Below, piece by piece: positions 471 to 47,517 of a stretch of 64,000 nucleotides of DNA. How positions within the stretch are numbered: position 1 is the first letter of the stretch; every line of letters begins with the position of its first letter. Location: contig JBPOHC010000366.1 in the NCBI GenBank assembly GCA_052035985.1, positions 1 to 64,000 on the forward strand, in the 5' to 3' direction. Position numbers and translations under genes: made by a program. Below the pieces are notes generated by a model that saw only the letters and a list, made by a program, of their open reading frames with translations, searched no databases and was not told the origin of the DNA. The stretch comes from Myxococcota bacterium (GTDB lineage Bacteria; Myxococcota_A; Polyangia; Polyangiales; Ga0077539).

Positions 471-1184
471 TCAGGGCGTCGCGGGCTTCTTCTTCGCGCG
501 GCGGCGGGCGTTGATCGCTTCGTTGTGCGCGTCGAGCTGGCGCTCGTACGCGTCGAGCACGCCGACCCGCAACGGGTCGCTCTCGGGCAGCGAGCCGGTG
601 AGCGCGAGGGCGAGCGTGGTGAAGGTCTCGTGCCACGCGTCGGAGAGGCGTTCGACATCGACGCCGCCAGGACCCTTCACGGCCACGCCGTAGGGCGCGA
701 GCAGCGCCTCGATGAAGTCGACCGTGTCGCCGAGGTCGAGCGTCTTGACCGCGGGCGCCGCCTCTTTGCTGCGTAGCGCGGCGACAAGGTCGCGCATCCC
801 GCGATACTGCGTGTCCATCGCGCCGCGCGTGAAGTCGATACGCTTGGGAAAGGCCATTCGCCGCAGCGAGCGTGCGGCTTCGAAGCGCCCGGAGGCTCCC
901 TTGTTCAGCGCGACGAGCGGGTCGGTGAAGGTCTGCTCGATGGACTTCAGCGTCCCGTAGAACCCACCGATCGCGCGGTCGGTCGCCGTGTCGACGACGA
1001 GCTTCGGGGCGACGGCCACGCCCGCGAGGGCCTCGTTGGCCGCGACGAACTCACCGATTCGCGAGGCGATGGGCTCCGCGCGTTTGCGCTTCGCGAGGGT
1101 GTCCTCGCGGAGCAGCTCCGCCACGCGTGTTCCCACGTTGCGCTGGCGTTCGACGGTGAGGCGGGCGATTGAAAACAGTGCCAT
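471..1184 (-). CDS. hypothetical protein (237 aa), divergent partner of the NACHT-ATPase gene
   Basis: Only the 3' third of track ORF 471..2843(-) has protein-like composition. ATG at 1184..1182 (MALFSIARLTVERQ...) is preceded by GGAGGT RBS. No recognisable motifs. Confidence 0.55.
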   Translation of the reverse strand: MALFSIARLTVERQRNVGTRVAELLREDTLAKRKRAEPIASRIGEFVAANEALAGVAVAPKLVVDTATDRAIGGFYGTLKSIEQTFTDPLVALNKGASGRFEAARSLRRMAFPKRIDFTRGAMDTQYRGMRDLVAALRSKEAAPAVKTLDLGDTVDFIEALLAPYGVAVKGPGGVDVERLSDAWHETFTTLALALTGSLPESDPLRVGVLDAYERQLDAHNEAINARRRAKKKPATP

Positions 1185-1274
1185 GGGGTACCTCCGTGCG
1201 GAGTCGCGTCGCGGGGGCGGTGGTCGCCCGGTGATTCGGTCGCGCACGCGTGCGACACGCTCCAGATAGCTAAT

Positions 1275-4200
1275 GTGTTGAGGAGGGATCTTTTTCGGAG
1301 GGCGCGTCGATTTTCTTCGCGAGGCGCTCACCGAGGTCCTCCCCGCGTCGGGAGTGTTGCCCCTGTGTGGGCGTTCATGTTCAATCCGCCGACCGTGACC
1401 ACGAGCGAGCCGACGCCCCACGACCTCGTGAGCGACGCCGTGCGTGCCGCGAAGCTCGGGCCTCACGTCGCCGACGCGCTCGTGATGTGGTTGGTGCGCG
1501 GTCTCGAAGACGATCGCCACGCGAAGCTCGATGGGGCGCCGGTAGACCCCTCGACGCGCGCTCGCCTCGCCCGCGTGTTCACCGACGTCGGTCTCGAGAA
1601 CGACGGCACCCCCGAGGAGCGCGAGGAGCGCCCCGGTGTGCTGGCCCGCCTTCTCTCGAACGAGCTCGTGCCGCGTAGGTGGTCGCATGACCGTCGTGGC
1701 GCCGCGCGTCGGGCAGAGGTGGAACTCCCGCGCTTCGTGCTCGTCGGAGGCCCTGGACAGGGCAAGTCGACGCTCGCGCAGCAGCTCACGCAGCAGCACC
1801 GCGCCGCCTGGCTGTCGCCGCGGAAGGAGGGCCTCGATGACATCGCGCGCGTGACGCTCGACGACATCGCAGCCCGCGCTGCCGAAGACTCCCTCGCGAT
1901 GGGTGACGTCGTACGCCTGCCCTTCCTGGTGCCGCTCGGGACGCTCTCGCGATGGCGCGTGACGCGCTCGATCGCGGAGCCTCTCCTGCTGAACTTTCTC
2001 GTCGAGCAGGTGAACGACGCAGGCGGCTCCGTGAGCGCGGAGGAGCTGACAGCGTTGCTCCGCGCGACGCCGTGGCTGCTGGTGCTCGACGGCCTCGACG
2101 AGGTCCCTGCGTCGGCGGGGCGTCGCGAGACGCTCGGGCTTGCAGAGCGCTTCATGCGCGAGCTCGCGGGCTCGAAGGGGATGCTCGTAGGCACCACGCG
2201 TCCGCAGGGCTACCAGGGCGATTTCGGCGAGGTCGACGAGCTGCACCTCGCGGCGTTCTCGACGAAGCGCGCCCTCGCGTACGCGAAGCGGCTGCTCGAA
2301 GACTGGTTCCCTTCGGCGGTGTCGGAGCAGCGTCGGCTGTTGGAGCGGCTCACGACCGCCTCGGCCGACGCGAACACCGCGCAGCTCCTCGGGACGCCGC
2401 TGCACGTGAGCATCCTCACCGCGCTGCTGCACCGGACGCCGGTGGTTCCGCGCGAGCGCTGGCAGATGTTTCACGACTTCTTCGCGTCGATCTATCAGCG
2501 CGAGGTCGACCGGCCGCACCCCTACGCCGAGCTCCTGAAGCGGTGGCGTCGCTACATCGAGCCGATGCACCACGTCGCAGGGCTGCATCTTCAGGCCCTC
2601 GGCGAGCGGGCTGAGGGGGCGGTGGCGCTCCTCACGAAGCCCGAGCTGGTGCGCATCGTCGACGCGCAGTTGCAGATCGGAAAGTTCACCGAAGAGCGCC
2701 GCCGCGAGCTCGTTCACGACATCGTCGAGGCCGCGTCCGATCGGCTCGTGCTGCTCGCGCAGGTCCGCGACGGTCGCTACGGCTTCACGTTGCGCTCCAT
2801 CCAGGAATTCATGGCCGCCGAGGCGCTCACGGGAGGCGCGCACGAGGCGGTCGTGCGGCGCGCGAGGCGCCTGGTGCCGCTACCCTACTGGCGCAACGTC
2901 GTGCTGCTCATGGTGAGCAAGGTGTTCTCGCCGGGGCAGTCAGCGCTCGCGCCGCTCACCGAGGCGCTCACGATCGGTCTCTGCGATCGGCTCACCGAGC
3001 GCGACGAGGCCACGGTGTACGTCCCAGGCGACGACGCGGCGTTTGCGAGCGATCTGCTCGGCGAAGGGTCGGTGACGGTCGATCCCGGCGTGACGCGCGC
3101 GGTGCTGGAGCGCGCGCTCACGATCATCGATCAGCCAGATGCGGAGCGTGCGAAGCAACTCGTCACCGCGCTGTCTCAGGTGGTCGGCGACGAGGATTGC
3201 GCGAGGGAGCTCGACGCGATCGCGCGTCCGCTACGCGCCGCGCGTTTGGGGAACAGCGACGACCTCGGGGCATGGAGGTTCGCGATCGGGCTCGCGGACG
3301 CAGGGATCGCGTGGGCGAACGCGCTCGCGACGAAGCGGTGGCCTGTGGATGCGGAGGCGCGAAGGTTCGTTGCGCTGCATTGTAGTGGGAGTCCGTGGGC
3401 GTTGTCGAAGTGGGTCGAAGAGAAGGTGATCGAGGACCTCGACACGTTTGGTCCGAACGAGATGATGAAAATCGAGCCGCTTTTTGGGTGGCCCAAGGCT
3501 CCCCGGCTCTGGGTTTCGTGCGAGCCGCAACTGACCTCGCTTCGTCGTATCACTGTGTCTCCGGAAGACGCTCCGATTGCTTTCCAACTGCGCCCTCTTG
3601 ATTCGGCGGGAGTGCCAGCGGTTGTTCTGGCAGAGCTGGCGCGTCTCACGCGTTGGCAACCGTGGTCGTGGATCGCTCGGTTCTCTTCTGCGCCGAGCCC
3701 AGAAGTGCTCTCGGAGGCGCTCGCGTACTTTGCGAACGAGGCGTCGCCCGAGCAGGTCGAACGCGCGAGAGCCGTAGCGCCGTGGCCGATCGCCGCCTGC
3801 CTCGCATGGGCCGAGTCGCCAGAGGAGCTACGGACGCTCTCCGAGGCTGCTGCCAGAGGCGAACTTGGGGACCTCGGGGTGTGGCGCGCTGCCGAGTCGC
3901 GGTGGGCGGCCCACCCGACGACGCTTCGCGAGTCCGCTCCGGATGGAGGCGCGTTGCCGTTCTCCGTCTCGATTCGCGATCACGGTTTTGTTCCGTGCGG
4001 AGAGGCGAGGATTGCGTGGGACCAGAGCGCGATCGAGGACCCGGACGTCGTCGCAGACCAGACCACGAGAGTTGTGCTCGAAGTGCTCCAGACCTCGCGA
4101 CGGCGAGCGGTCGCGCGTTGGGCGGCGCTCGTGCTCGACGTTCTCGTTGAGGACGCCTGGCCGGTCCGGTCAGTCGTACCGCTCTCACTCATGGAGCGGC

Positions 4201-6140
4201 TCTTAGATGCCTCTCACGCGGATATCGGGATGCTCACCCGCATCGTGGCTCTTGCCGAGAGAGACGCGCTGGTCGAGCTCCTCGAGGCGAGGCGCGATCG
4301 GGTTGCGGTCAGCGATTGGACCCAACCAGACCCCATCAGCTCCTTGCTCGAGGCTCATCCTGCTGCGCCTGTGTTGTTGCTCTTAGCGCTGCGAATGGTG
4401 AGCTGGGATGGGCACCTGCGAGTTCGCATCCCCGCTGCGACCTTCGTGATGGCGGAGAGCCTCGCTCCCGAAGATCGAGCCGCAGTCGCTGCGTTCGAAT
4501 TCGCGCGCGGCGGTGCCCTCGACATCGCGCGGCTGGCCTCGCTCCTCGTCGTCAGCGATCTCGCCGTTGAAGCGGCGTTGGCGATCGCTTTCGACGACTC
4601 CGCCCGCGGTGCTTCTCTCGCGATCGAGCTCCTCGCGCGGCTCCCCGACTCTAAGAGCGATCTCCGCGCTCGTTGCACCCGCCTGCTCCTCCAAGCCCGA
4701 AAGCTCCAGTGCAGCGAACTCCTCGTGCCCTCCGAGTGGAAGGAACTCTCGCTTCCGCGCCCTTCACCGCCGGAGCCGTCGAGCGCGTCGCCCGTCGCGC
4801 CGGTTCACATCGAGAGCCTGCGCATCGAGAACGTGCGCGCGTTCGACGCCTTCGAACTCCCCGTCGCCTCGTCGGGCGACAACGGCGCGTGGGTCGTGCT
4901 CCTCGGCGAGAACGGGACGGGCAAGAGCACCGCGCTCCGTGCCATCACCCTCGCCCTTGCCGAGCCCGACTACGCGACCACCATGTTCACCGAGTCGGCC
5001 TCGCGCGCCACGTGGCGACGCGACCCCGAGAAGCCCGCGCGCGCCACGGTGAGCCTCCACGGCCAGTCGTACACGGTCACGCTCGGCACGGGCGACACGG
5101 GCCGGGAGACGCTCGTCGCGTCGAGCGATCCGCCCAACGGCTCCGCGCGTGAGCGGCCCTTCCTCGTGGCCTACGGATGTCGGCGCGGCGCGGCGGACGG
5201 AGGCCGCGATCAGAAGGTCGACGTCGAGCCCCTCGACGGAATCGGTACGCTCTTCGACGCGCCGGGGCGCGCGCTCGTCATCGCCGAGGCGTGGCTCAAG
5301 GACCTCGCGCTCGCGCAGCTCCAGAACGAGCCCGGCAGCGCGCACCTCTACGACGTCGTGCGCGAGGTGCTCGTCGGCGACGGGACCACGGAGGGAATCC
5401 TCCCCGGCGTGCGTGCGATGAGAATCTCGGGCGGCACGGTGTGGTTCGAGGGGCCCGACGTGGGGACCTCGCCGCTCGCAGCGCTCAGCGACGGGTACAT
5501 CACCACCGCGGGCTGGGTCATCGACCTGATGGCGCGCTGGATCCACCACCGACGCACCCGCAAGGAGCTCGTGTCGCGCGACTTCACGAGCGAGATGCGC
5601 GGCGTGGTGCTGCTCGACGAGATCGACCTGCACCTGCATCCGCGCTGGCAGCGGGAGCTCATCCCCGCCGTGCGGAGGGTCTTTCCGAAGCTGACCTTCG
5701 TGGTGACGACGCACAACCCGCTGACCGTGATCGGCGCGCGCGAGGGCGAGGTGTTCGTGCTGCGTCGGCGCAAGGGCGCGTCGGGCGTCGAGGCGCGTCG
5801 GCTACACCTGCCCGTTGGAATGCGCGCGGATCAGGTGCTCACGGGGGAGTGGTTCGGCCTCGCGACGACGCTCGACCCCGAGACCTTCGACCTCTGGGAG
5901 AGGCACTACCGCGCGCTCCGCAGCGGCAAGAAGGCGGGCGACCCCGAGCTGCGAGACCTGGAGCGCGAGCTCGCGCGCCGTCTGGGGACCTACGCGAGCA
6001 CGTCGCTCGATCGCATCGCCCTCGACGTCGCGGCCGAGGTGATGGGAGACCGCCCGAAGGACCTCTCGGCATCGGAGCGCGAGGCCGCGCGCGCGAGCAT
6101 CCTGGAGTGGGTGAAGCACCGCGCGGAGGACGCGTCGTAA
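1275..6140 (+). CDS. giant STAND/NACHT-like NTPase fused to C-terminal PtuA/AAA_21-type ABC ATPase (Septu PtuA-like), 1621 aa (alternative ATG start at 1377)
   Basis: N-terminal Walker A VLVGGPGQGKSTLAQQL and Walker B LLVLDGLDEV (NACHT signature). Long helical A/L-rich middle. C-terminus IESLRIENVRAFDAFELP ... VVLLGENGTGKSTALRAI (Walker A) ... VVLLDEIDLHLHPRWQ (Walker B) ... FVVTTHNPL (H-loop), typical of AAA_15/21 OLD/PtuA ATPases. Track start at 1275 is GTG; an AT-richer stretch sits just upstream. Confidence 0.8.
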   Translation: MLRRDLFRRARRFSSRGAHRGPPRVGSVAPVWAFMFNPPTVTTSEPTPHDLVSDAVRAAKLGPHVADALVMWLVRGLEDDRHAKLDGAPVDPSTRARLARVFTDVGLENDGTPEEREERPGVLARLLSNELVPRRWSHDRRGAARRAEVELPRFVLVGGPGQGKSTLAQQLTQQHRAAWLSPRKEGLDDIARVTLDDIAARAAEDSLAMGDVVRLPFLVPLGTLSRWRVTRSIAEPLLLNFLVEQVNDAGGSVSAEELTALLRATPWLLVLDGLDEVPASAGRRETLGLAERFMRELAGSKGMLVGTTRPQGYQGDFGEVDELHLAAFSTKRALAYAKRLLEDWFPSAVSEQRRLLERLTTASADANTAQLLGTPLHVSILTALLHRTPVVPRERWQMFHDFFASIYQREVDRPHPYAELLKRWRRYIEPMHHVAGLHLQALGERAEGAVALLTKPELVRIVDAQLQIGKFTEERRRELVHDIVEAASDRLVLLAQVRDGRYGFTLRSIQEFMAAEALTGGAHEAVVRRARRLVPLPYWRNVVLLMVSKVFSPGQSALAPLTEALTIGLCDRLTERDEATVYVPGDDAAFASDLLGEGSVTVDPGVTRAVLERALTIIDQPDAERAKQLVTALSQVVGDEDCARELDAIARPLRAARLGNSDDLGAWRFAIGLADAGIAWANALATKRWPVDAEARRFVALHCSGSPWALSKWVEEKVIEDLDTFGPNEMMKIEPLFGWPKAPRLWVSCEPQLTSLRRITVSPEDAPIAFQLRPLDSAGVPAVVLAELARLTRWQPWSWIARFSSAPSPEVLSEALAYFANEASPEQVERARAVAPWPIAACLAWAESPEELRTLSEAAARGELGDLGVWRAAESRWAAHPTTLRESAPDGGALPFSVSIRDHGFVPCGEARIAWDQSAIEDPDVVADQTTRVVLEVLQTSRRRAVARWAALVLDVLVEDAWPVRSVVPLSLMERLLDASHADIGMLTRIVALAERDALVELLEARRDRVAVSDWTQPDPISSLLEAHPAAPVLLLLALRMVSWDGHLRVRIPAATFVMAESLAPEDRAAVAAFEFARGGALDIARLASLLVVSDLAVEAALAIAFDDSARGASLAIELLARLPDSKSDLRARCTRLLLQARKLQCSELLVPSEWKELSLPRPSPPEPSSASPVAPVHIESLRIENVRAFDAFELPVASSGDNGAWVVLLGENGTGKSTALRAITLALAEPDYATTMFTESASRATWRRDPEKPARATVSLHGQSYTVTLGTGDTGRETLVASSDPPNGSARERPFLVAYGCRRGAADGGRDQKVDVEPLDGIGTLFDAPGRALVIAEAWLKDLALAQLQNEPGSAHLYDVVREVLVGDGTTEGILPGVRAMRISGGTVWFEGPDVGTSPLAALSDGYITTAGWVIDLMARWIHHRRTRKELVSRDFTSEMRGVVLLDEIDLHLHPRWQRELIPAVRRVFPKLTFVVTTHNPLTVIGAREGEVFVLRRRKGASGVEARRLHLPVGMRADQVLTGEWFGLATTLDPETFDLWERHYRALRSGKKAGDPELRDLERELARRLGTYASTSLDRIALDVAAEVMGDRPKDLSASEREAARASILEWVKHRAEDAS

Positions 6141-6168
6141 CGACGCGCGCGTTGGGGGAGCGACGGGG

Positions 6169-6984
6169 ATGTTGCGCTTCATTCGCCCGAAGGAGCCCGA
6201 CGACTTCGCGACGCGCGTCGCCGGTCCTCGCGCGAAGATCGACGGGATCGTCGCGGGCGGAAAGCTCCCGTCGAGCAAGCAGTTCGACGCGACGTGGCGC
6301 GAGTTCAAGAAGCCCCTGAGCGACACGCAGGAGGGCAAATGCGGCTACTGCGAGTCGTTCATCCGGGCGACGCAGTACGGCGACGTCGAGCACTATCGCC
6401 CGAAGGCTGAGCTCACCCGCGTGGCCGTTGGTGTGCCGATCCCGTGGACCTCCGAGGCTCCGCCGCCCACCGATTCCGTGAGCGAGTGTGGCTACTGGTG
6501 GCTCGCGTACGAGTGGACGAACTACCTCTTCGCGTGCGGGATCTGCAACGAGCGCTGGAAGGGCGAGCTCTTTCCCGTGGCGGTGCCGCAGCCGTCGAAG
6601 CTCAACCGCGGCTGCGAGAAGGCGGGCGAGGATCCGCTGCTGCTCAATCCGTACGGCGCGGAGCCGCCCGAGGAGCACCTCCGCTTCGACTCGGAGGGGC
6701 GCGTCTTCGCCCGCGCGAACTCGGTCCGCGGTGAGGCGACGATCACCACGTGCGGGCTTCACCGCATCGACCTCGTGACGGCGCGAGGGCCGATTGCGCA
6801 ACGCGTCCACGCGCTGATCGGCGAGATCAACAAAGCGAGGACCTCGGATCGAAAGGCTCCGCACATCGCCGATCTGCAAGCGCTCGGGAGCCGCAGGAGT
6901 CCTCACGCGGGGATGGTGCGCTCGCTCGTCGCGGAGAGCGTCTCGCCTGACGTCGTCGCGGCGCTCTGGCCCGACCATCGCTGA
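6169..6984 (+). CDS. HNH endonuclease, TIGR02646/PtuB-like (Septu effector-type), 271 aa
   Basis: Motifs GKCGYCES...HYRPK...WTNYLFACGICNERWKGE match the AAA-ATPase-associated HNH family. ATG at 6169 has GGGGGAG RBS and lies 28 bp after the upstream stop, so the two are likely co-transcribed. Confidence 0.8.
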   Translation: MLRFIRPKEPDDFATRVAGPRAKIDGIVAGGKLPSSKQFDATWREFKKPLSDTQEGKCGYCESFIRATQYGDVEHYRPKAELTRVAVGVPIPWTSEAPPPTDSVSECGYWWLAYEWTNYLFACGICNERWKGELFPVAVPQPSKLNRGCEKAGEDPLLLNPYGAEPPEEHLRFDSEGRVFARANSVRGEATITTCGLHRIDLVTARGPIAQRVHALIGEINKARTSDRKAPHIADLQALGSRRSPHAGMVRSLVAESVSPDVVAALWPDHR

Positions 6985-45628: not shown

Positions 45629-45702
45629 GGATCCGGAACCTCGAGAGGCAGAGGCGGCGGCTCTTACCCGTCGACGTGAGGGTTCAAGTCCCTTCGGATC
45701 TA
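45629..45702 (+). tRNA. tRNA-like, anticodon CTT (Lys) by manual fold
   Basis: Acceptor ggatccg/cggatct. Anticodon stem ggcgg/ccgtc, loop ctCTTac. T-arm gaggg-ttcaagt-ccctt. CCA encoded at 45703-05. D-region irregular. Confidence 0.4.
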
Positions 45703-45760
45703 CCAACCGCACCGCGCAGCGCGCGCTGCGGGCAACGCCTGGCACGAGGGTGTTGCGAAT

Positions 45761-45831
45761 TGCCCGATGGTCCAATGGCAAGATGGCCGGCTCTGAACTG
45801 GTTGATCCTGGTTCGAATCCAGGTCGGGCAA
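45761..45831 (+). tRNA. tRNA-Gln(CTG)-like
   Basis: Perfect acceptor tgcccga/tcgggca. U8. Anticodon loop ctCTGaa. T-arm cctgg-ttcgaat-ccagg. Weak D-stem. Confidence 0.5.
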
Positions 45832-45969
45832 CCGTCTGGCGGAGGGGGACACGTCCCCGCCACTCCGCGGATCTCTGACAACACGGGGTTGATGAGCGTC
45901 AGGCGCGACACCATGCGCGCCGCGACGCGAACGAAGGCGCCCTCCGCCACGATGAGGGAGGGCGCGCAC

Positions 45970-46042
45970 TGCGGGGTAGCTCAAAGGTAGAGCGGTCGGC
46001 TGTTAACCGGCGTCCGTGTGGGTTCGATTCCCTCCCTCGCAG
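45970..46042 (+). tRNA. tRNA-Asn(GTT)
   Basis: D-arm gctc-aaaggta-gagc. Anticodon stem gtcgg/ccggc, loop ctGTTaa. T-loop ttcgatt. 3' CCA encoded. Confidence 0.6.
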
Positions 46043-46053
46043 CCATCGTGAAC

Positions 46054-46124
46054 GGGGCCATCGTCCAAGGGGAAGATGTCTGCATGGCATGCAGGAGATG
46101 AGGGTTCGACTCCCTCTGGTTCCA
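46054..46124 (+). tRNA. tRNA-Ala(GGC)-like
   Basis: Acceptor ggggcca/tggttcc (2 G-U). Anticodon stem tctgc/gcagg, loop atGGCat. Perfect T-arm gaggg-ttcgact-ccctc. D-arm degenerate. Confidence 0.45.
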
Positions 46125-46140
46125 CTGTTTGATTCGCTTC

Positions 46141-46213
46141 GCCCATCGAGGCTGTCGGAAGAAACCGTCGGGCTACGAACTCGAAGTGCGTGGTTCAACT
46201 CCACGGATGGGCG
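46141..46213 (+). tRNA. tRNA-Arg(ACG)
   Basis: Perfect acceptor gcccatc/gatgggc. Anticodon stem tcggg/ctcga, loop ctACGaa. T-arm cgtgg-ttcaact-ccacg. CCA encoded. Confidence 0.6.
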
Positions 46214-46220
46214 CCAGTAT

Positions 46221-46293
46221 CAGCGTGTAGCTCAGTCAGAAGAGCGCCTGCTTCGGGAGCAGGAGGCCGCGGGGGCAGGTCCCGCCTCGCTGA
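46221..46293 (+). tRNA. tRNA-Pro(CGG)-like with non-canonical T-loop
   Basis: Canonical D-arm tagctcagtcagaagagc. Anticodon stem cctgc/gcagg, loop ttCGGga (G37). T-stem gcggg/cccgc but T-loop ggcaggt lacks TTC. Confidence 0.45.
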
Positions 46294-46324
46294 CCGCGTC
46301 GCAAGACGCTTCGCCTCGCATCAC

Positions 46325-46397
46325 GGCCCTGTCGTCTAGAGGTTCAAGATCGCTGGCCCTCAACCAGCAGAGGCGGGTTCGAGTCCCGTCAGGGTCG
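46325..46397 (+). tRNA. tRNA-Glu(CTC)-like
   Basis: Acceptor ggccctg/cagggtc. Anticodon stem gctgg/ccagc, loop ccCTCaa (C at 33). T-arm gcggg-ttcgagt-cccgt. Confidence 0.5.
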
Positions 46398-46410
46398 CCG
46401 TTTCAGCATC

Positions 46411-46483
46411 GCGGACGTAGTGTTCAACAGCAGCACATCGCGGCCCCATCGCGAGAGCTCGGGTGCAAATCCCGACGTCCGCA
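46411..46483 (+). tRNA. tRNA-Gly(CCC)-like
   Basis: Perfect acceptor gcggacg/cgtccgc. Anticodon stem tcgcg/cgcga, loop gcCCCat. T-arm tcggg-tgcaaat-cccga. Confidence 0.5.
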
Positions 46484-46534
46484 CCGGAGCGCGCACGCGG
46501 CGCCGTCCAAGCCGAGCGTTGCGCATTCCATCAA

Positions 46535-46606
46535 GGTCCCGTCGTTCAACGGATAGGACAGCCGATTGTCGATCGGCCAACGCGGGTTCGATTCCCGTCG
46601 GGACCG
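46535..46606 (+). tRNA. tRNA-Asp(GTC)
   Basis: Acceptor ggtcccg/cgggacc. D-arm gttc-aacggata-ggac. Anticodon stem gccga/tcggc, loop ttGTCga. T-arm gcggg-ttcgatt-cccgt. Confidence 0.7.
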
Positions 46607-46622
46607 CCTTCTGTCTCTCTCT

Positions 46623-46695
46623 GCCCATCGAGGCTGTCGGAAGAAACCATCGGGTGGCGAACCCGAAATGCGTGGTTCAACTCCACGGATGGGCG
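46623..46695 (+). tRNA. tRNA-like Arg paralogue with aberrant anticodon loop (possible pseudo-tRNA)
   Basis: Near-identical to 46141..46213 in acceptor, D- and T-arms, but anticodon loop is tgGCGaa (G at position 33). Confidence 0.35.
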
Positions 46696-46713
46696 CTCTC
46701 TGCCTCTCGCCTC

Positions 46714-46786
46714 GACCCTGTCATCTAACGGCTCAGGATGCCTGGTTCTCAGCCAGATCATACGGGTTCGAATCCCGTCAGGGTCG
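46714..46786 (+). tRNA. tRNA-Glu(CTC)
   Basis: Perfect acceptor gaccctg/cagggtc. Anticodon loop ttCTCag with U33. T-arm acggg-ttcgaat-cccgt. Confidence 0.6.
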
Positions 46787-46802
46787 CCGCCTCACCGCCT
46801 CT

Positions 46803-46875
46803 GCGGACGTAGTGTTCAACAGCAGCACCTCACAGTGCCATCGTGAGAGATCGGGTGCAAATCCCGACGCCCGCA
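46803..46875 (+). tRNA. tRNA-Gly(GCC)
   Basis: Paralogue of 46411..46483. Anticodon stem tcaca/cgtga (4 bp), loop gtGCCat (U33, A37). T-arm tcggg-tgcaaat-cccga. Confidence 0.6.
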
Positions 46876-46893
46876 CCGCTTCTGCGCCTCTCT

Positions 46894-46966
46894 GGTCCTG
46901 TCGTTCAGTGGTCTAGGACGGCCGATTGTCGATCGGTCAACGCGGGTTCGATTCCCGTCGGGACCG
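46894..46966 (+). tRNA. tRNA-Asp(GTC), second copy
   Basis: Paralogue of 46535..46606. Anticodon stem gccga/tcggt, loop ttGTCga. Identical 3' flank cgccttctgtc. Confidence 0.65.
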
Positions 46967-46986
46967 CCTTCTGTCACTGCCTTCTT

Positions 46987-47055
46987 CGTGGTCCGATCAG
47001 CATCGAGCCCTGTCTTACAAACAAGGCGAACCGGGGGCGGCACCCGGGGCCACGA
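46987..47055 (+). tRNA. tRNA-like, anticodon TAC (Val), reduced D-arm, non-canonical T-loop
   Basis: Acceptor cgtggtc/ggccacg. Anticodon loop ctTACaa. T-stem ccggg/cccgg with loop ggcggca. CCA encoded at 47056-58. Only 69 nt. Confidence 0.3.
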
Positions 47056-47059
47056 CCAT

Positions 47060-47132
47060 CAGTGTGTAGCTCAGCCAGGAGAGCGCCGGTTCGGGGGACC
47101 GGAGGCCGCGGGGGCGGAACCCGCCACACTGA
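47060..47132 (+). tRNA. tRNA-Pro(GGG)-like with non-canonical T-loop
   Basis: Perfect acceptor cagtgtg/cacactg. D-arm gctc-agccagga-gagc. Anticodon stem ccggt/accgg, loop tcGGGgg. T-loop ggcggaa. CCA encoded. Confidence 0.45.
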
Positions 47133-47145
47133 CCACTCTCCTCAT

Positions 47146-47216
47146 GGGGCGGTAGTTCAACGGTAGAACGCCTGACTGTGGCCCAGGCAATATGGGTTCG
47201 ATTCCCGTCCGTCCCT
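47146..47216 (+). tRNA. tRNA-His(GTG)-like
   Basis: Acceptor ggggcgg/ccgtccc. Perfect D-arm gttc-aacggta-gaac. Anticodon loop ctGTGgc. T-arm atggg-ttcgatt-cccgt. Confidence 0.5.
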
Positions 47217-47246
47217 CTGTTTTCAAAGCACTTCACAGCCTCTCAT

Positions 47247-47319
47247 GGCCCTGTCGTCTAATGGTAGAAGATCGCGGATTTTCACCCCGCGGACACGGGT
47301 TCGATTCCCGTCAGGGCTG
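47247..47319 (+). tRNA. tRNA-Glu(TTC)
   Basis: Acceptor ggccctg/cagggct. Anticodon loop ttTTCac (canonical Glu loop). T-arm acggg-ttcgatt-cccgt. CCA encoded at 47320-22. Confidence 0.65.
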
Positions 47320-47332
47320 CCATGAATCGCTT

Positions 47333-47403
47333 GCGGGTATGGTGTAGCAGCAGCACCGGTGGCCTCCGCCCACCATGCGCGGGTGCGAATCCCGCTGCCC
47401 GCT
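47333..47403 (+). tRNA. tRNA-Gly(TCC)-like
   Basis: Acceptor gcgggta/tgcccgc. Perfect anticodon stem ggtgg/ccacc, loop ccTCCgc. T-arm gcggg-tgcgaat-cccgc. Confidence 0.5.
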
Positions 47404-47517
47404 CCGTCTGATCGTCGACCCCGTCATCACGCCGCCCCCAATTCGTAGATAGCGACGTACCCGTCTCGTACACGGGCCAGTGCCGTGCAAGTCGGCATGG
47501 GGGCTCTACGTCACCGC

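Follow-up and report, generated by a model that had tools for sequence, protein, structure and literature searches.

In canonical Septu a PtuA ATPase of ∼450–550 residues is paired with the HNH nuclease PtuB, and the two proteins carry no further domains. In E. coli Septu the ATPase and HNH activities are both required, phage resistance is conferred, and tRNA-Tyr is cleaved on infection (PMC13096335). The stand-alone PtuAB pair works without a NACHT partner, and its nicking activity is lowered by ATP, as far as these results are cited in PMC12819146. The same pair is co-opted as an effector by retron Ec78, which keeps PtuAB sequestered until phage infection (PMC12819146). The genes of bacterial NACHT proteins (bNACHT) are rarely in operons, and those operons are poorly conserved (Kibby et al., bioRxiv 10.1101/2022.07.19.500537). 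Here we describe a locus in which PtuA is joined to a NACHT protein. It lies in the first 64,000 nucleotides of contig JBPOHC010000366.1 (assembly GCA_052035985.1) of a Myxococcota bacterium, a stretch referred to below as the window, and consists of a gene for a NACHT–helical array–PtuA fusion protein followed directly by a gene for PtuB. An earlier note, made from the sequence alone, had proposed a Septu-like pair whose ATPase bears an N-terminal NACHT/STAND NTPase and a helical array, and profile searches, predicted structures, and comparative genomics support this architecture. We consider it probable that an NLR-like (NACHT) STAND protein has here taken over the Septu PtuA-PtuB pair as its effector, giving a two-gene putative anti-phage module.

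Positions 471..6984 of the window hold three genes in sequence of ∼70% G+C. The fusion gene, its domains, and the PtuB gene are arranged as follows.

1377..6140, + strand: NACHT–helical array–PtuA fusion gene, an uninterrupted open reading frame (ORF) for 1587 aa
1377..1721, + strand: N-terminal helical region (aa 1–115), helical in the AlphaFold2 (AF2) model
1722..2831, + strand: NACHT NTPase module, NBD-HD1-WHD (aa 116–485), with Walker A at 1746–1772, Walker B at 2076–2102, and TTRPQGY at 2193–2213
2832..4751, + strand: α-helical array (aa 486–1125, ∼640 aa) from the AF2 model, a putative sensor or scaffold
4752..4802, + strand: Pro-rich linker LPRPSPPEPSSASPVAP from the array to the ABC ATPase, from the sequence
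4797..6137, + strand: PtuA-type ABC ATPase domain (aa 1141–1587), with Walker A at 4905–4931, the LSDGY signature at 5484–5498, Walker B at 5616–5642, and the H-loop at 5706–5720
6169..6984, + strand: PtuB HNH nuclease (271 aa), with CGYCE at 6340–6354, VEHYRPK at 6385–6405, and WTNYLFACGICNERWK at 6514–6561

The maximal ORF of the fusion gene, counted from GTG 1275, is 1275..6140 (+) and corresponds to the 1621-aa protein with two nucleotide-binding modules that the earlier note described. Both modules were recovered (by Pfam NACHT and PADLOC PtuA), but 1587 aa is the likelier length. The start is more likely ATG 1377 because this is the start of NCBI protein P0001 (1587 aa, 100% identical) and because M1 is nearly invariant in the family, most of the 36 other members of a 37-member alignment starting at the matching position. 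Residue numbers given here are those of the 1587-aa protein; positions of profile matches are those of the 1621-aa ORF. The motifs found in the protein are GGPGQGKST (aa 124–132), LLVLDGLDE (aa 234–242), GENGTGKST (aa 1177–1185), LSDGY (aa 1370–1374), DEIDLHLHP (aa 1414–1422), and TTHNP (aa 1444–1448), and the gene ends with TAA at 6138–6140.

The C-terminal 447 residues are equivalent to a full-length PtuA of the kind seen in Septu (8ee4/8ee7/8eea), with Walker A, signature, Walker B, and H-loop. PADLOC PtuA models matched aa 1173–1613 with E values down to 4e-62, the top model being PDLC00292, and a stand-alone PtuA profile was covered at positions 8–415 of 444; the PtuA is complete. Pfam AAA_21 matched the C terminus (E=1.5e-13, 51.9 bits, cut-off 27). 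When the whole protein was searched against the sequences of the PDB, the best match (E=2.5e-15) was to 8ee4, the PtuA of E. coli Septu, and the PtuA chains of retrons Ec78 and Ec83 came next. Two PADLOC models of type I-A retrons, ATPase_I-A (3e-26) and HNH_I-A (2e-10), also matched the PtuA-PtuB pair. The C-terminal PtuA/AAA_21 ATPase that had been read from the sequence is thus borne out by profiles and by the PDB.

As in Septu, PtuB follows PtuA in a tightly coupled arrangement. The gap from the fusion-gene stop at 6140 to the PtuB ATG at 6169 is 28 nt, exactly as the earlier note had it, and a GGGGGAG Shine-Dalgarno-like motif precedes PtuB. The 271-aa product matched PADLOC PtuB with E=2e-48, and it has the CxxC...EH(Y/F)RPK...N...CxxCN..K motifs and the C-terminal helical domain of the Septu nuclease. 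A PDB sequence search with PtuB gave no match; a fold search with its AF2 model (pLDDT, the predicted local distance difference test score, 93.9) gave seven significant PDB matches: the PtuB chain of E. coli Septu (8eea) and six PtuB chains of retron Ec78/Eco7/I-A complexes. The assignment of the nuclease to TIGR02646 was right as to the kind of protein but not at the curated threshold, the match of 25.2 bits falling under the cut-off of 52.15. The NCBIfam PtuB model scored 33.4 against a cut-off of 150 and the PtuA equivalog 89.8 against 500, and because these equivalog scores are so far under their cut-offs, PtuA and PtuB are to be regarded as distant relatives of the characterized proteins. 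The 20 aligned loci all have a partner with the motifs CxYCE, EH(Y/F)RPK, GYWWLA.W.N, and C..CN..K, and residues C61, H75, N118, C123, C126, N127, and K131 are invariant among 60 homologues. Judged from their motifs, both NTPases and the HNH nuclease look catalytically intact. Promoter and terminator scans near the module returned nothing informative. The locus has an ABC/AAA_21 ATPase with intact motifs, a PtuB-type HNH nuclease with its catalytic His, and ptuA directly followed by ptuB. It is unlike canonical Septu in that PtuA is only the C-terminal 447 of 1587 residues and is preceded by about 1140 extra N-terminal residues that add a second NTPase switch, the NACHT module, and the helical array.

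The N-terminal NACHT similarity was found both by profile and by fold. Pfam NACHT (PF05729) matched aa 196–342 with E=1.8e-16 (60.9 bits, cut-off 26.7), and the module is of the NACHT-clade STAND type, NBD-HD1-WHD with Walker A, Walker B, and sensor-1. The AF2 model of residues 1–1138, built on a 68-sequence alignment, has a pLDDT of 87.9 and a predicted template modeling score (pTM) of 0.87. In a Foldseek search with this model, the top PDB matches were NLRC4, NOD2, NLRP7, and NLRP3 (E 5e-7 to 1e-4), and the fold is closest to NOD2, NLRP3, NLRC4, and NAIP. The array is non-helical in the model only at a hairpin (aa 723–738) and a short strand (aa 879–881). A P-rich consensus is present at the linker position throughout the family, and the genes of split loci, described below, are divided at the same junction. 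No effector domain or family match was obtained for aa 1–115 with Pfam, PADLOC, and NCBIfam profiles. The N-terminal 1175 residues matched no PADLOC model, NLR models included, and the NCBIfam equivalog for the NACHT antiphage protein EruA (NF058535), which has a cut-off of 1000, scored only 17 bits, at the P-loop. As in the bNACHT proteins of Kibby et al. and in Avs, a central NACHT with invariant motifs is followed by a long variable helical region. Unlike those proteins, the fusion has no recognizable N-terminal effector, and its candidate effector, at the C terminus, is itself an ATPase that needs a second gene, PtuB; it is thus not a single-gene bNACHT system with an N-terminal effector, a TIR-like N terminus being present only in relatives of ∼1300 aa.

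The fusion is a conserved, taxonomically widespread family. A search of 5.8 billion proteins gave about 45 full-length relatives of 1460–1680 aa with NACHT and AAA_21 Pfam matches; their two Walker A motifs lie about 1050–1100 residues apart, and their sources include Sorangium, Polyangiales, Myxococcales, and metagenomes. An exhaustive HMMER search with the PtuA domain alone gave 13,991 relatives at E≤1e-3. The top 150 stand for one 50%-identity cluster each, and about 58 of them are NACHT-PtuA fusions. Besides the window's own locus, 19 fused and 2 split loci were found. In all 19 fused loci NACHT and PtuA are encoded by a single unbroken ORF. In the two split loci, from Polyangiales (L012) and Minicystis (L011), a gene for a NACHT-array protein of 1147/1191 aa is followed by a separate AAA_21/PtuA gene and then by PtuB, and the consecutive order of the three genes argues that the NACHT-array protein, PtuA, and PtuB are one functional unit. 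A PtuB homologue adjoins PtuA in all 19 fused and 2 split loci (in one fused locus, L097, according to its gene calls), in keeping with the linkage to an HNH gene proposed earlier; the PtuB start lies −4 to +165 nt from the PtuA stop where measured, often with a 4-nt overlap. This operon partner at every fusion or split locus examined sets the family apart from bNACHT genes. At ∼65 loci of related NACHT proteins without the ABC domain, no PtuA or PtuB was found within about 6 kb. The hosts of fusion and split loci include Polyangia/Myxococcota, Desulfocapsa (Desulfobacterota), an alphaproteobacterial metagenome-assembled genome, the Betaproteobacteria Burkholderiaceae UC74_6 and Candidatus Rhodoferax, and Candidatus Riflebacteria, and complete genomes with the fusion include Sorangium cellulosum CP003969 and Burkholderiaceae CP170561. 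An alignment of 37 fusion proteins shows no variation in the core residues of the NACHT motifs (Walker A, Walker B, and TTRPQGY) or in those of the ABC motifs (Walker A, LSDGY, DEIDLHLHP, and TTHNP). Where public records name the proteins, they use "AAA family ATPase," "hypothetical protein," or, in a few cases, a spurious label such as EcfA2.

The closest NACHT relatives of the fusion are single-gene proteins of ∼1300 aa with a TIR-like N terminus on the NACHT-array scaffold. Their N-terminal ∼160–180 residues match the PADLOC TIR-type models Aga_TIR and PDC-S73 (E 1e-7 to 5e-11); three of them that were tested had no NCBIfam match (EruA included) and PADLOC matches at the N terminus only. 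The N-terminal helical region of the fusion is common to these relatives, which add about 170 residues in front of it, and so are the first ∼350 residues of the array. In the TIR-type proteins about 1015 aa separate Walker A from the C terminus, and in the fusion the same distance separates it from the junction with PtuA. The gene for one such protein, in Pseudomonas viciae CP123771 (L008, 7001–10927), stands alone and directly adjoins a P2-like prophage with portal and terminase genes; such a flank is a typical defense hotspot. Because the nearest NACHT relatives are TIR-type proteins on the same scaffold, the effector module appears to have been swapped, so that one scaffold has a TIR-like domain at its N terminus in some proteins and, in others, PtuA at its C terminus, with PtuB supplied in trans. 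When the NACHT modules were placed in a rough neighbor-joining tree, the 74 TIR-type proteins grouped in a single clade free of other forms; around this clade lie the fusion, split, and short forms, which show greater diversity. The short forms are proteins of ∼1015 aa (e.g. P0030, L009 5186–9327) in which NACHT is joined almost directly to PtuA with no long array, and the partner of P0030 is a 367-aa PtuB-like protein with an extra C-terminal extension of about 100 aa.

The array is also the most variable part of the fusion. Within the family, mean pairwise identity is 0.28 and 0.21 in the two halves of the array, 0.41 in NACHT, and 0.36 in PtuA; in a comparison with the nearest homologue, identity is 44% and 38% in the array halves, 69% in NACHT, and 77% in PtuA. 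A helical region of ∼640 aa is thus present on the C-terminal side of NACHT, where a sensor would be expected, although the short members of the family are without it, and its variability is the pattern that a sensor under diversifying pressure might be expected to show.

The clade of PtuA to which the fusion belongs also holds stand-alone proteins (390–530 aa) and other N-terminal fusions such as PNP_UDP_1-PtuA, the PtuA domain of the window's protein being 43–48% identical to the PNP-PtuA and stand-alone forms. Two of these proteins, P0143 (741 aa) and P0134 (1040 aa), have a PNP_UDP_1 phosphorylase/nucleosidase domain N-terminal to a PtuA with 45–48% identity to that of the fusion; this is apparently another Septu-type architecture that has escaped description, and it suggests that PtuA is a hub for various partner domains. 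In PNP_UDP_1-PtuA and in the PtuB-PtuA fusions (PDLC00292/00288/00291) the added part is of effector type (PNP or HNH), unlike the STAND part found here, which is of sensor or switch type. A parallel is provided by the type I-A retrons (Ec78/Eco7, Ec83), where a portable PtuA-PtuB pair is likewise subordinate to an unrelated upstream sensor. The sensor differs: in the fusion it is a NACHT STAND covalently joined to PtuA, not a reverse transcriptase (RT) with multicopy single-stranded DNA (msDNA).

Two non-myxobacterial loci place the module directly beside other defense genes. NsnA/NsnB/NsnC lie directly upstream of it in Candidatus Riflebacteria (L027, 2529–5701), and a type I restriction-modification system with PDC-S02 lies directly upstream in Candidatus Rhodoferax (L035, 22–4526).

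We infer a sensor role for the array, activation by induced proximity, a nucleic acid substrate, and a defense phenotype. The variable helical array after NACHT would bind a phage-derived trigger or perhaps sense a host perturbation. Binding would free NACHT to exchange nucleotide and to oligomerize, as other bacterial NACHT/Avs proteins do, and oligomerization would gather the PtuA ABC heads on their flexible Pro-rich linkers. Once gathered, the heads could assemble into ATP-sandwich dimers or into higher oligomers of the kind reported for PtuA on its own. PtuB, presumably held on the C-terminal helices of PtuA through its own helical C-terminal domain as in the solved PtuAB complexes, would be licensed to cut nucleic acid, either by DNA nicking or by tRNA cleavage as in E. 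coli Septu and retron Eco7. Abortive infection or growth arrest would follow, and phage would no longer be produced. More tentatively, and with clearly less confidence than in the takeover itself, the covalent union of PtuA-PtuB with an NLR-type receptor might be a third mode of deployment, not recognized before, after stand-alone Septu and retron I-A. Two NTPase switches would act in series, with NACHT oligomerization gating ABC dimerization; the nuclease would fire only given both a phage ligand and a permissive nucleotide state, as in an AND gate, and the effector would sit at the opposite end from that of all characterized NLRs.

Several points weigh against the takeover of PtuA-PtuB by a NACHT receptor. 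In ABC-ATPase defense systems such as PARIS (PMC11464382), the role of sensor is usually given to the ABC ATPase itself. STAND proteins usually have the effector at the N terminus, whereas here it follows the presumed sensor on the C-terminal side, and induced proximity via a NACHT ring is therefore not geometrically obvious. Because short members such as P0030 keep NACHT, PtuA, and PtuB without the long array, the array is not indispensable. The neighbors of the module in the window are of housekeeping type (a HEAT-repeat protein, DUF1517, YchF, a sigma-54 activator, and ClpB) and do not form a defense island.

The alternative that survives best, although we regard it as unlikely, is that the NACHT-array part keeps PtuA-PtuB inactive, much as RT-msDNA does in Ec78, and that a phage trigger releases or remodels the pair with no oligomerization-driven proximity. 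Sequestration is the way in which retron Ec78 governs PtuAB (PMC12819146), the separate PtuA of the split loci must dock non-covalently on the NACHT-array protein, and the flexible linker tethers the PtuA domain directly to the array. What disfavors such an arrangement is the NACHT module, because the invariance of all its nucleotide-binding motifs points to active switching and not to passive clamping.

In PARIS, Gabija, and stand-alone Septu, sensing is attributed to the ABC ATPase. PtuA could accordingly be the primary sensor, of ATP level, DNA ends, or a phage protein, with NACHT as a downstream amplifier, a scaffold, or a second independent input. Stand-alone PtuAB needs no NACHT partner and its nicking is reduced by ATP, to the extent reported by citation in PMC12819146; PNP_UDP_1-PtuA (P0143 and P0134) belongs to the same clade, so that PtuA can be seen as a hub bearing effector-like domains; and the long array is missing from the short forms. 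We nevertheless find this reading improbable, more so than sequestration. The long, fast-evolving array that is common to the TIR-type NLR-like proteins resembles a classical STAND sensor, and the TIR-type relatives use the same scaffold without an ABC ATPase.

There is very little to recommend the view that the fusion is no functional unit at all, being an assembly or frameshift artifact, a chance juxtaposition of bNACHT and Septu, or a protein with a non-defense role such as DNA repair or regulation. The window is part of a 68-kb NCBI contig, and its genes next to the module are those of housekeeping type named above. However, the ORF is unbroken here and at 19 other loci of several phyla, complete genomes included, and the artifact part of this view is largely refuted. 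The share of NACHT-PtuA fusions among the best PtuA-domain relatives, the conserved catalytic motifs, and the defense islands that flank the module in Candidatus Riflebacteria and Candidatus Rhodoferax speak against the view as well.

The third gene of the stretch and a repeat beyond it are as follows.

471..1184, − strand: gene for a 237-aa protein, divergent, 192 nt from the fusion-gene start (1377)
358–451: three tandem copies of a 32-bp repeat, extended to about 473 by one more, degenerate copy; every unit contains the palindrome GGTCGCGACC

The 237-aa protein had been described as having no recognizable domains, and it gave no Pfam, NCBIfam, or PADLOC match. It has 13 homologues that are 37–97% identical and about 237–242 aa long, bar one 142-aa fragment, and is thus a genuine lineage-restricted gene. 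No homologue was found in the searched fused and split loci (tblastn, 92 loci); L097 was outside this search, and its called genes show none upstream. Two homologues (63% and 41% identical) lie in unrelated neighborhoods without NACHT, PtuA, or PtuB, and by tblastx synteny with a score filter the first 16 kb of the window share only the 237-aa gene with the homologue contigs. The suggestion that this gene is a third component or a regulator is rejected on these grounds, and its status as a conserved component is refuted. That the gene and/or the 32-bp repeat act as regulator and operator in a three-component system, as the divergent placement of a real and conserved gene so near the fusion start might suggest, is barely credible given the distribution of the homologues and the position of the repeat on the far side of the gene. 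A Uma2 gene stands directly after the 237-aa-family gene in L095 and L096 and about 7 kb off in L093.

The palindrome-containing repeat was confirmed. Its palindrome matches 3 times where chance would give 0, and nowhere else in the window; the repeat, lying beyond the 237-aa gene, has no link to the NACHT-PtuA-PtuB module. It is part of the intergenic region 58–470, which is bounded on one side by the stop codon of the 237-aa gene and on the other by a possible minus-strand ATG (56–58) of an ORF that leaves the window. A 28-nt inverted repeat (112–139/238–265, 93% complementary) encloses 98 nt in this region, which folds more stably than shuffled sequences (z=−4.3) and matched only spurious miRNA-hairpin models of Rfam (gathering and E≤1). 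The elements of the region could be operator sites, a terminator, or a hairpin like that of a miniature inverted-repeat transposable element.

A retron was considered because the PtuAB models include those of retron I-A, because myxobacteria are rich in retrons, and because of the inverted repeat in 58–470. No retron msr or other retron RNA was found in the window with Rfam (gathering and E≤1). RVT_1 was not among the precomputed Pfam matches of module neighbors in loci with gene calls, and in the window itself the gene left of nt 58 is cut off by the window's edge. A retron was rejected, there being no Rfam retron RNA and no RT family recorded beside the homologous loci with gene calls; the RT gene and msr/msd non-coding RNA that accompany ptuAB in type I-A retrons were thus not found here.

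Elsewhere in the window, 15 tRNA genes lie within 1.9 kb at 45629–47506 (+), for Lys, Gln, Asn, Ala, Arg (two), Pro, Glu (three), Asp (two), His, Gly, and Thr. The array contains no tRNA-Tyr and is flanked by a gene for a TPR/cytochrome c7 protein and an aminotransferase gene. At a distance of ∼40 kb from the PtuAB module, it is probably unrelated to it.

No description of a NACHT-PtuA fusion or a NACHT-PtuB operon was found in full-text searches of a collection with few subscription-journal papers, nor in the bNACHT paper, a 2026 survey of STAND proteins, conflict-system papers from the Aravind laboratory, and structure papers on retrons and Septu, and the view that the architecture had not been described before is upheld to that extent. 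The plain PtuA/PtuB pair is probably already called Septu by PADLOC-type tools; the new part is the architecture that combines an NLR-like STAND protein with Septu, not the gene pair itself. Annotation pipelines probably label such loci plain Septu or "AAA family ATPase" and so miss the sensor. In nature one scaffold occurs in a fused, a split, a short (array-less), and a TIR-swapped form, a ready comparative series that bears on how NACHT oligomerization is transmitted to an effector and on what activates PtuAB. If the module functions as proposed, PtuA-PtuB would be a general plug-in effector that serves at least two unrelated sensors, the RT-msDNA of retrons and a NACHT receptor. Bacterial NLR-like proteins would then be able to use a C-terminal ATPase effector that needs a partner nuclease, which would widen the rules of domain order in STAND proteins.

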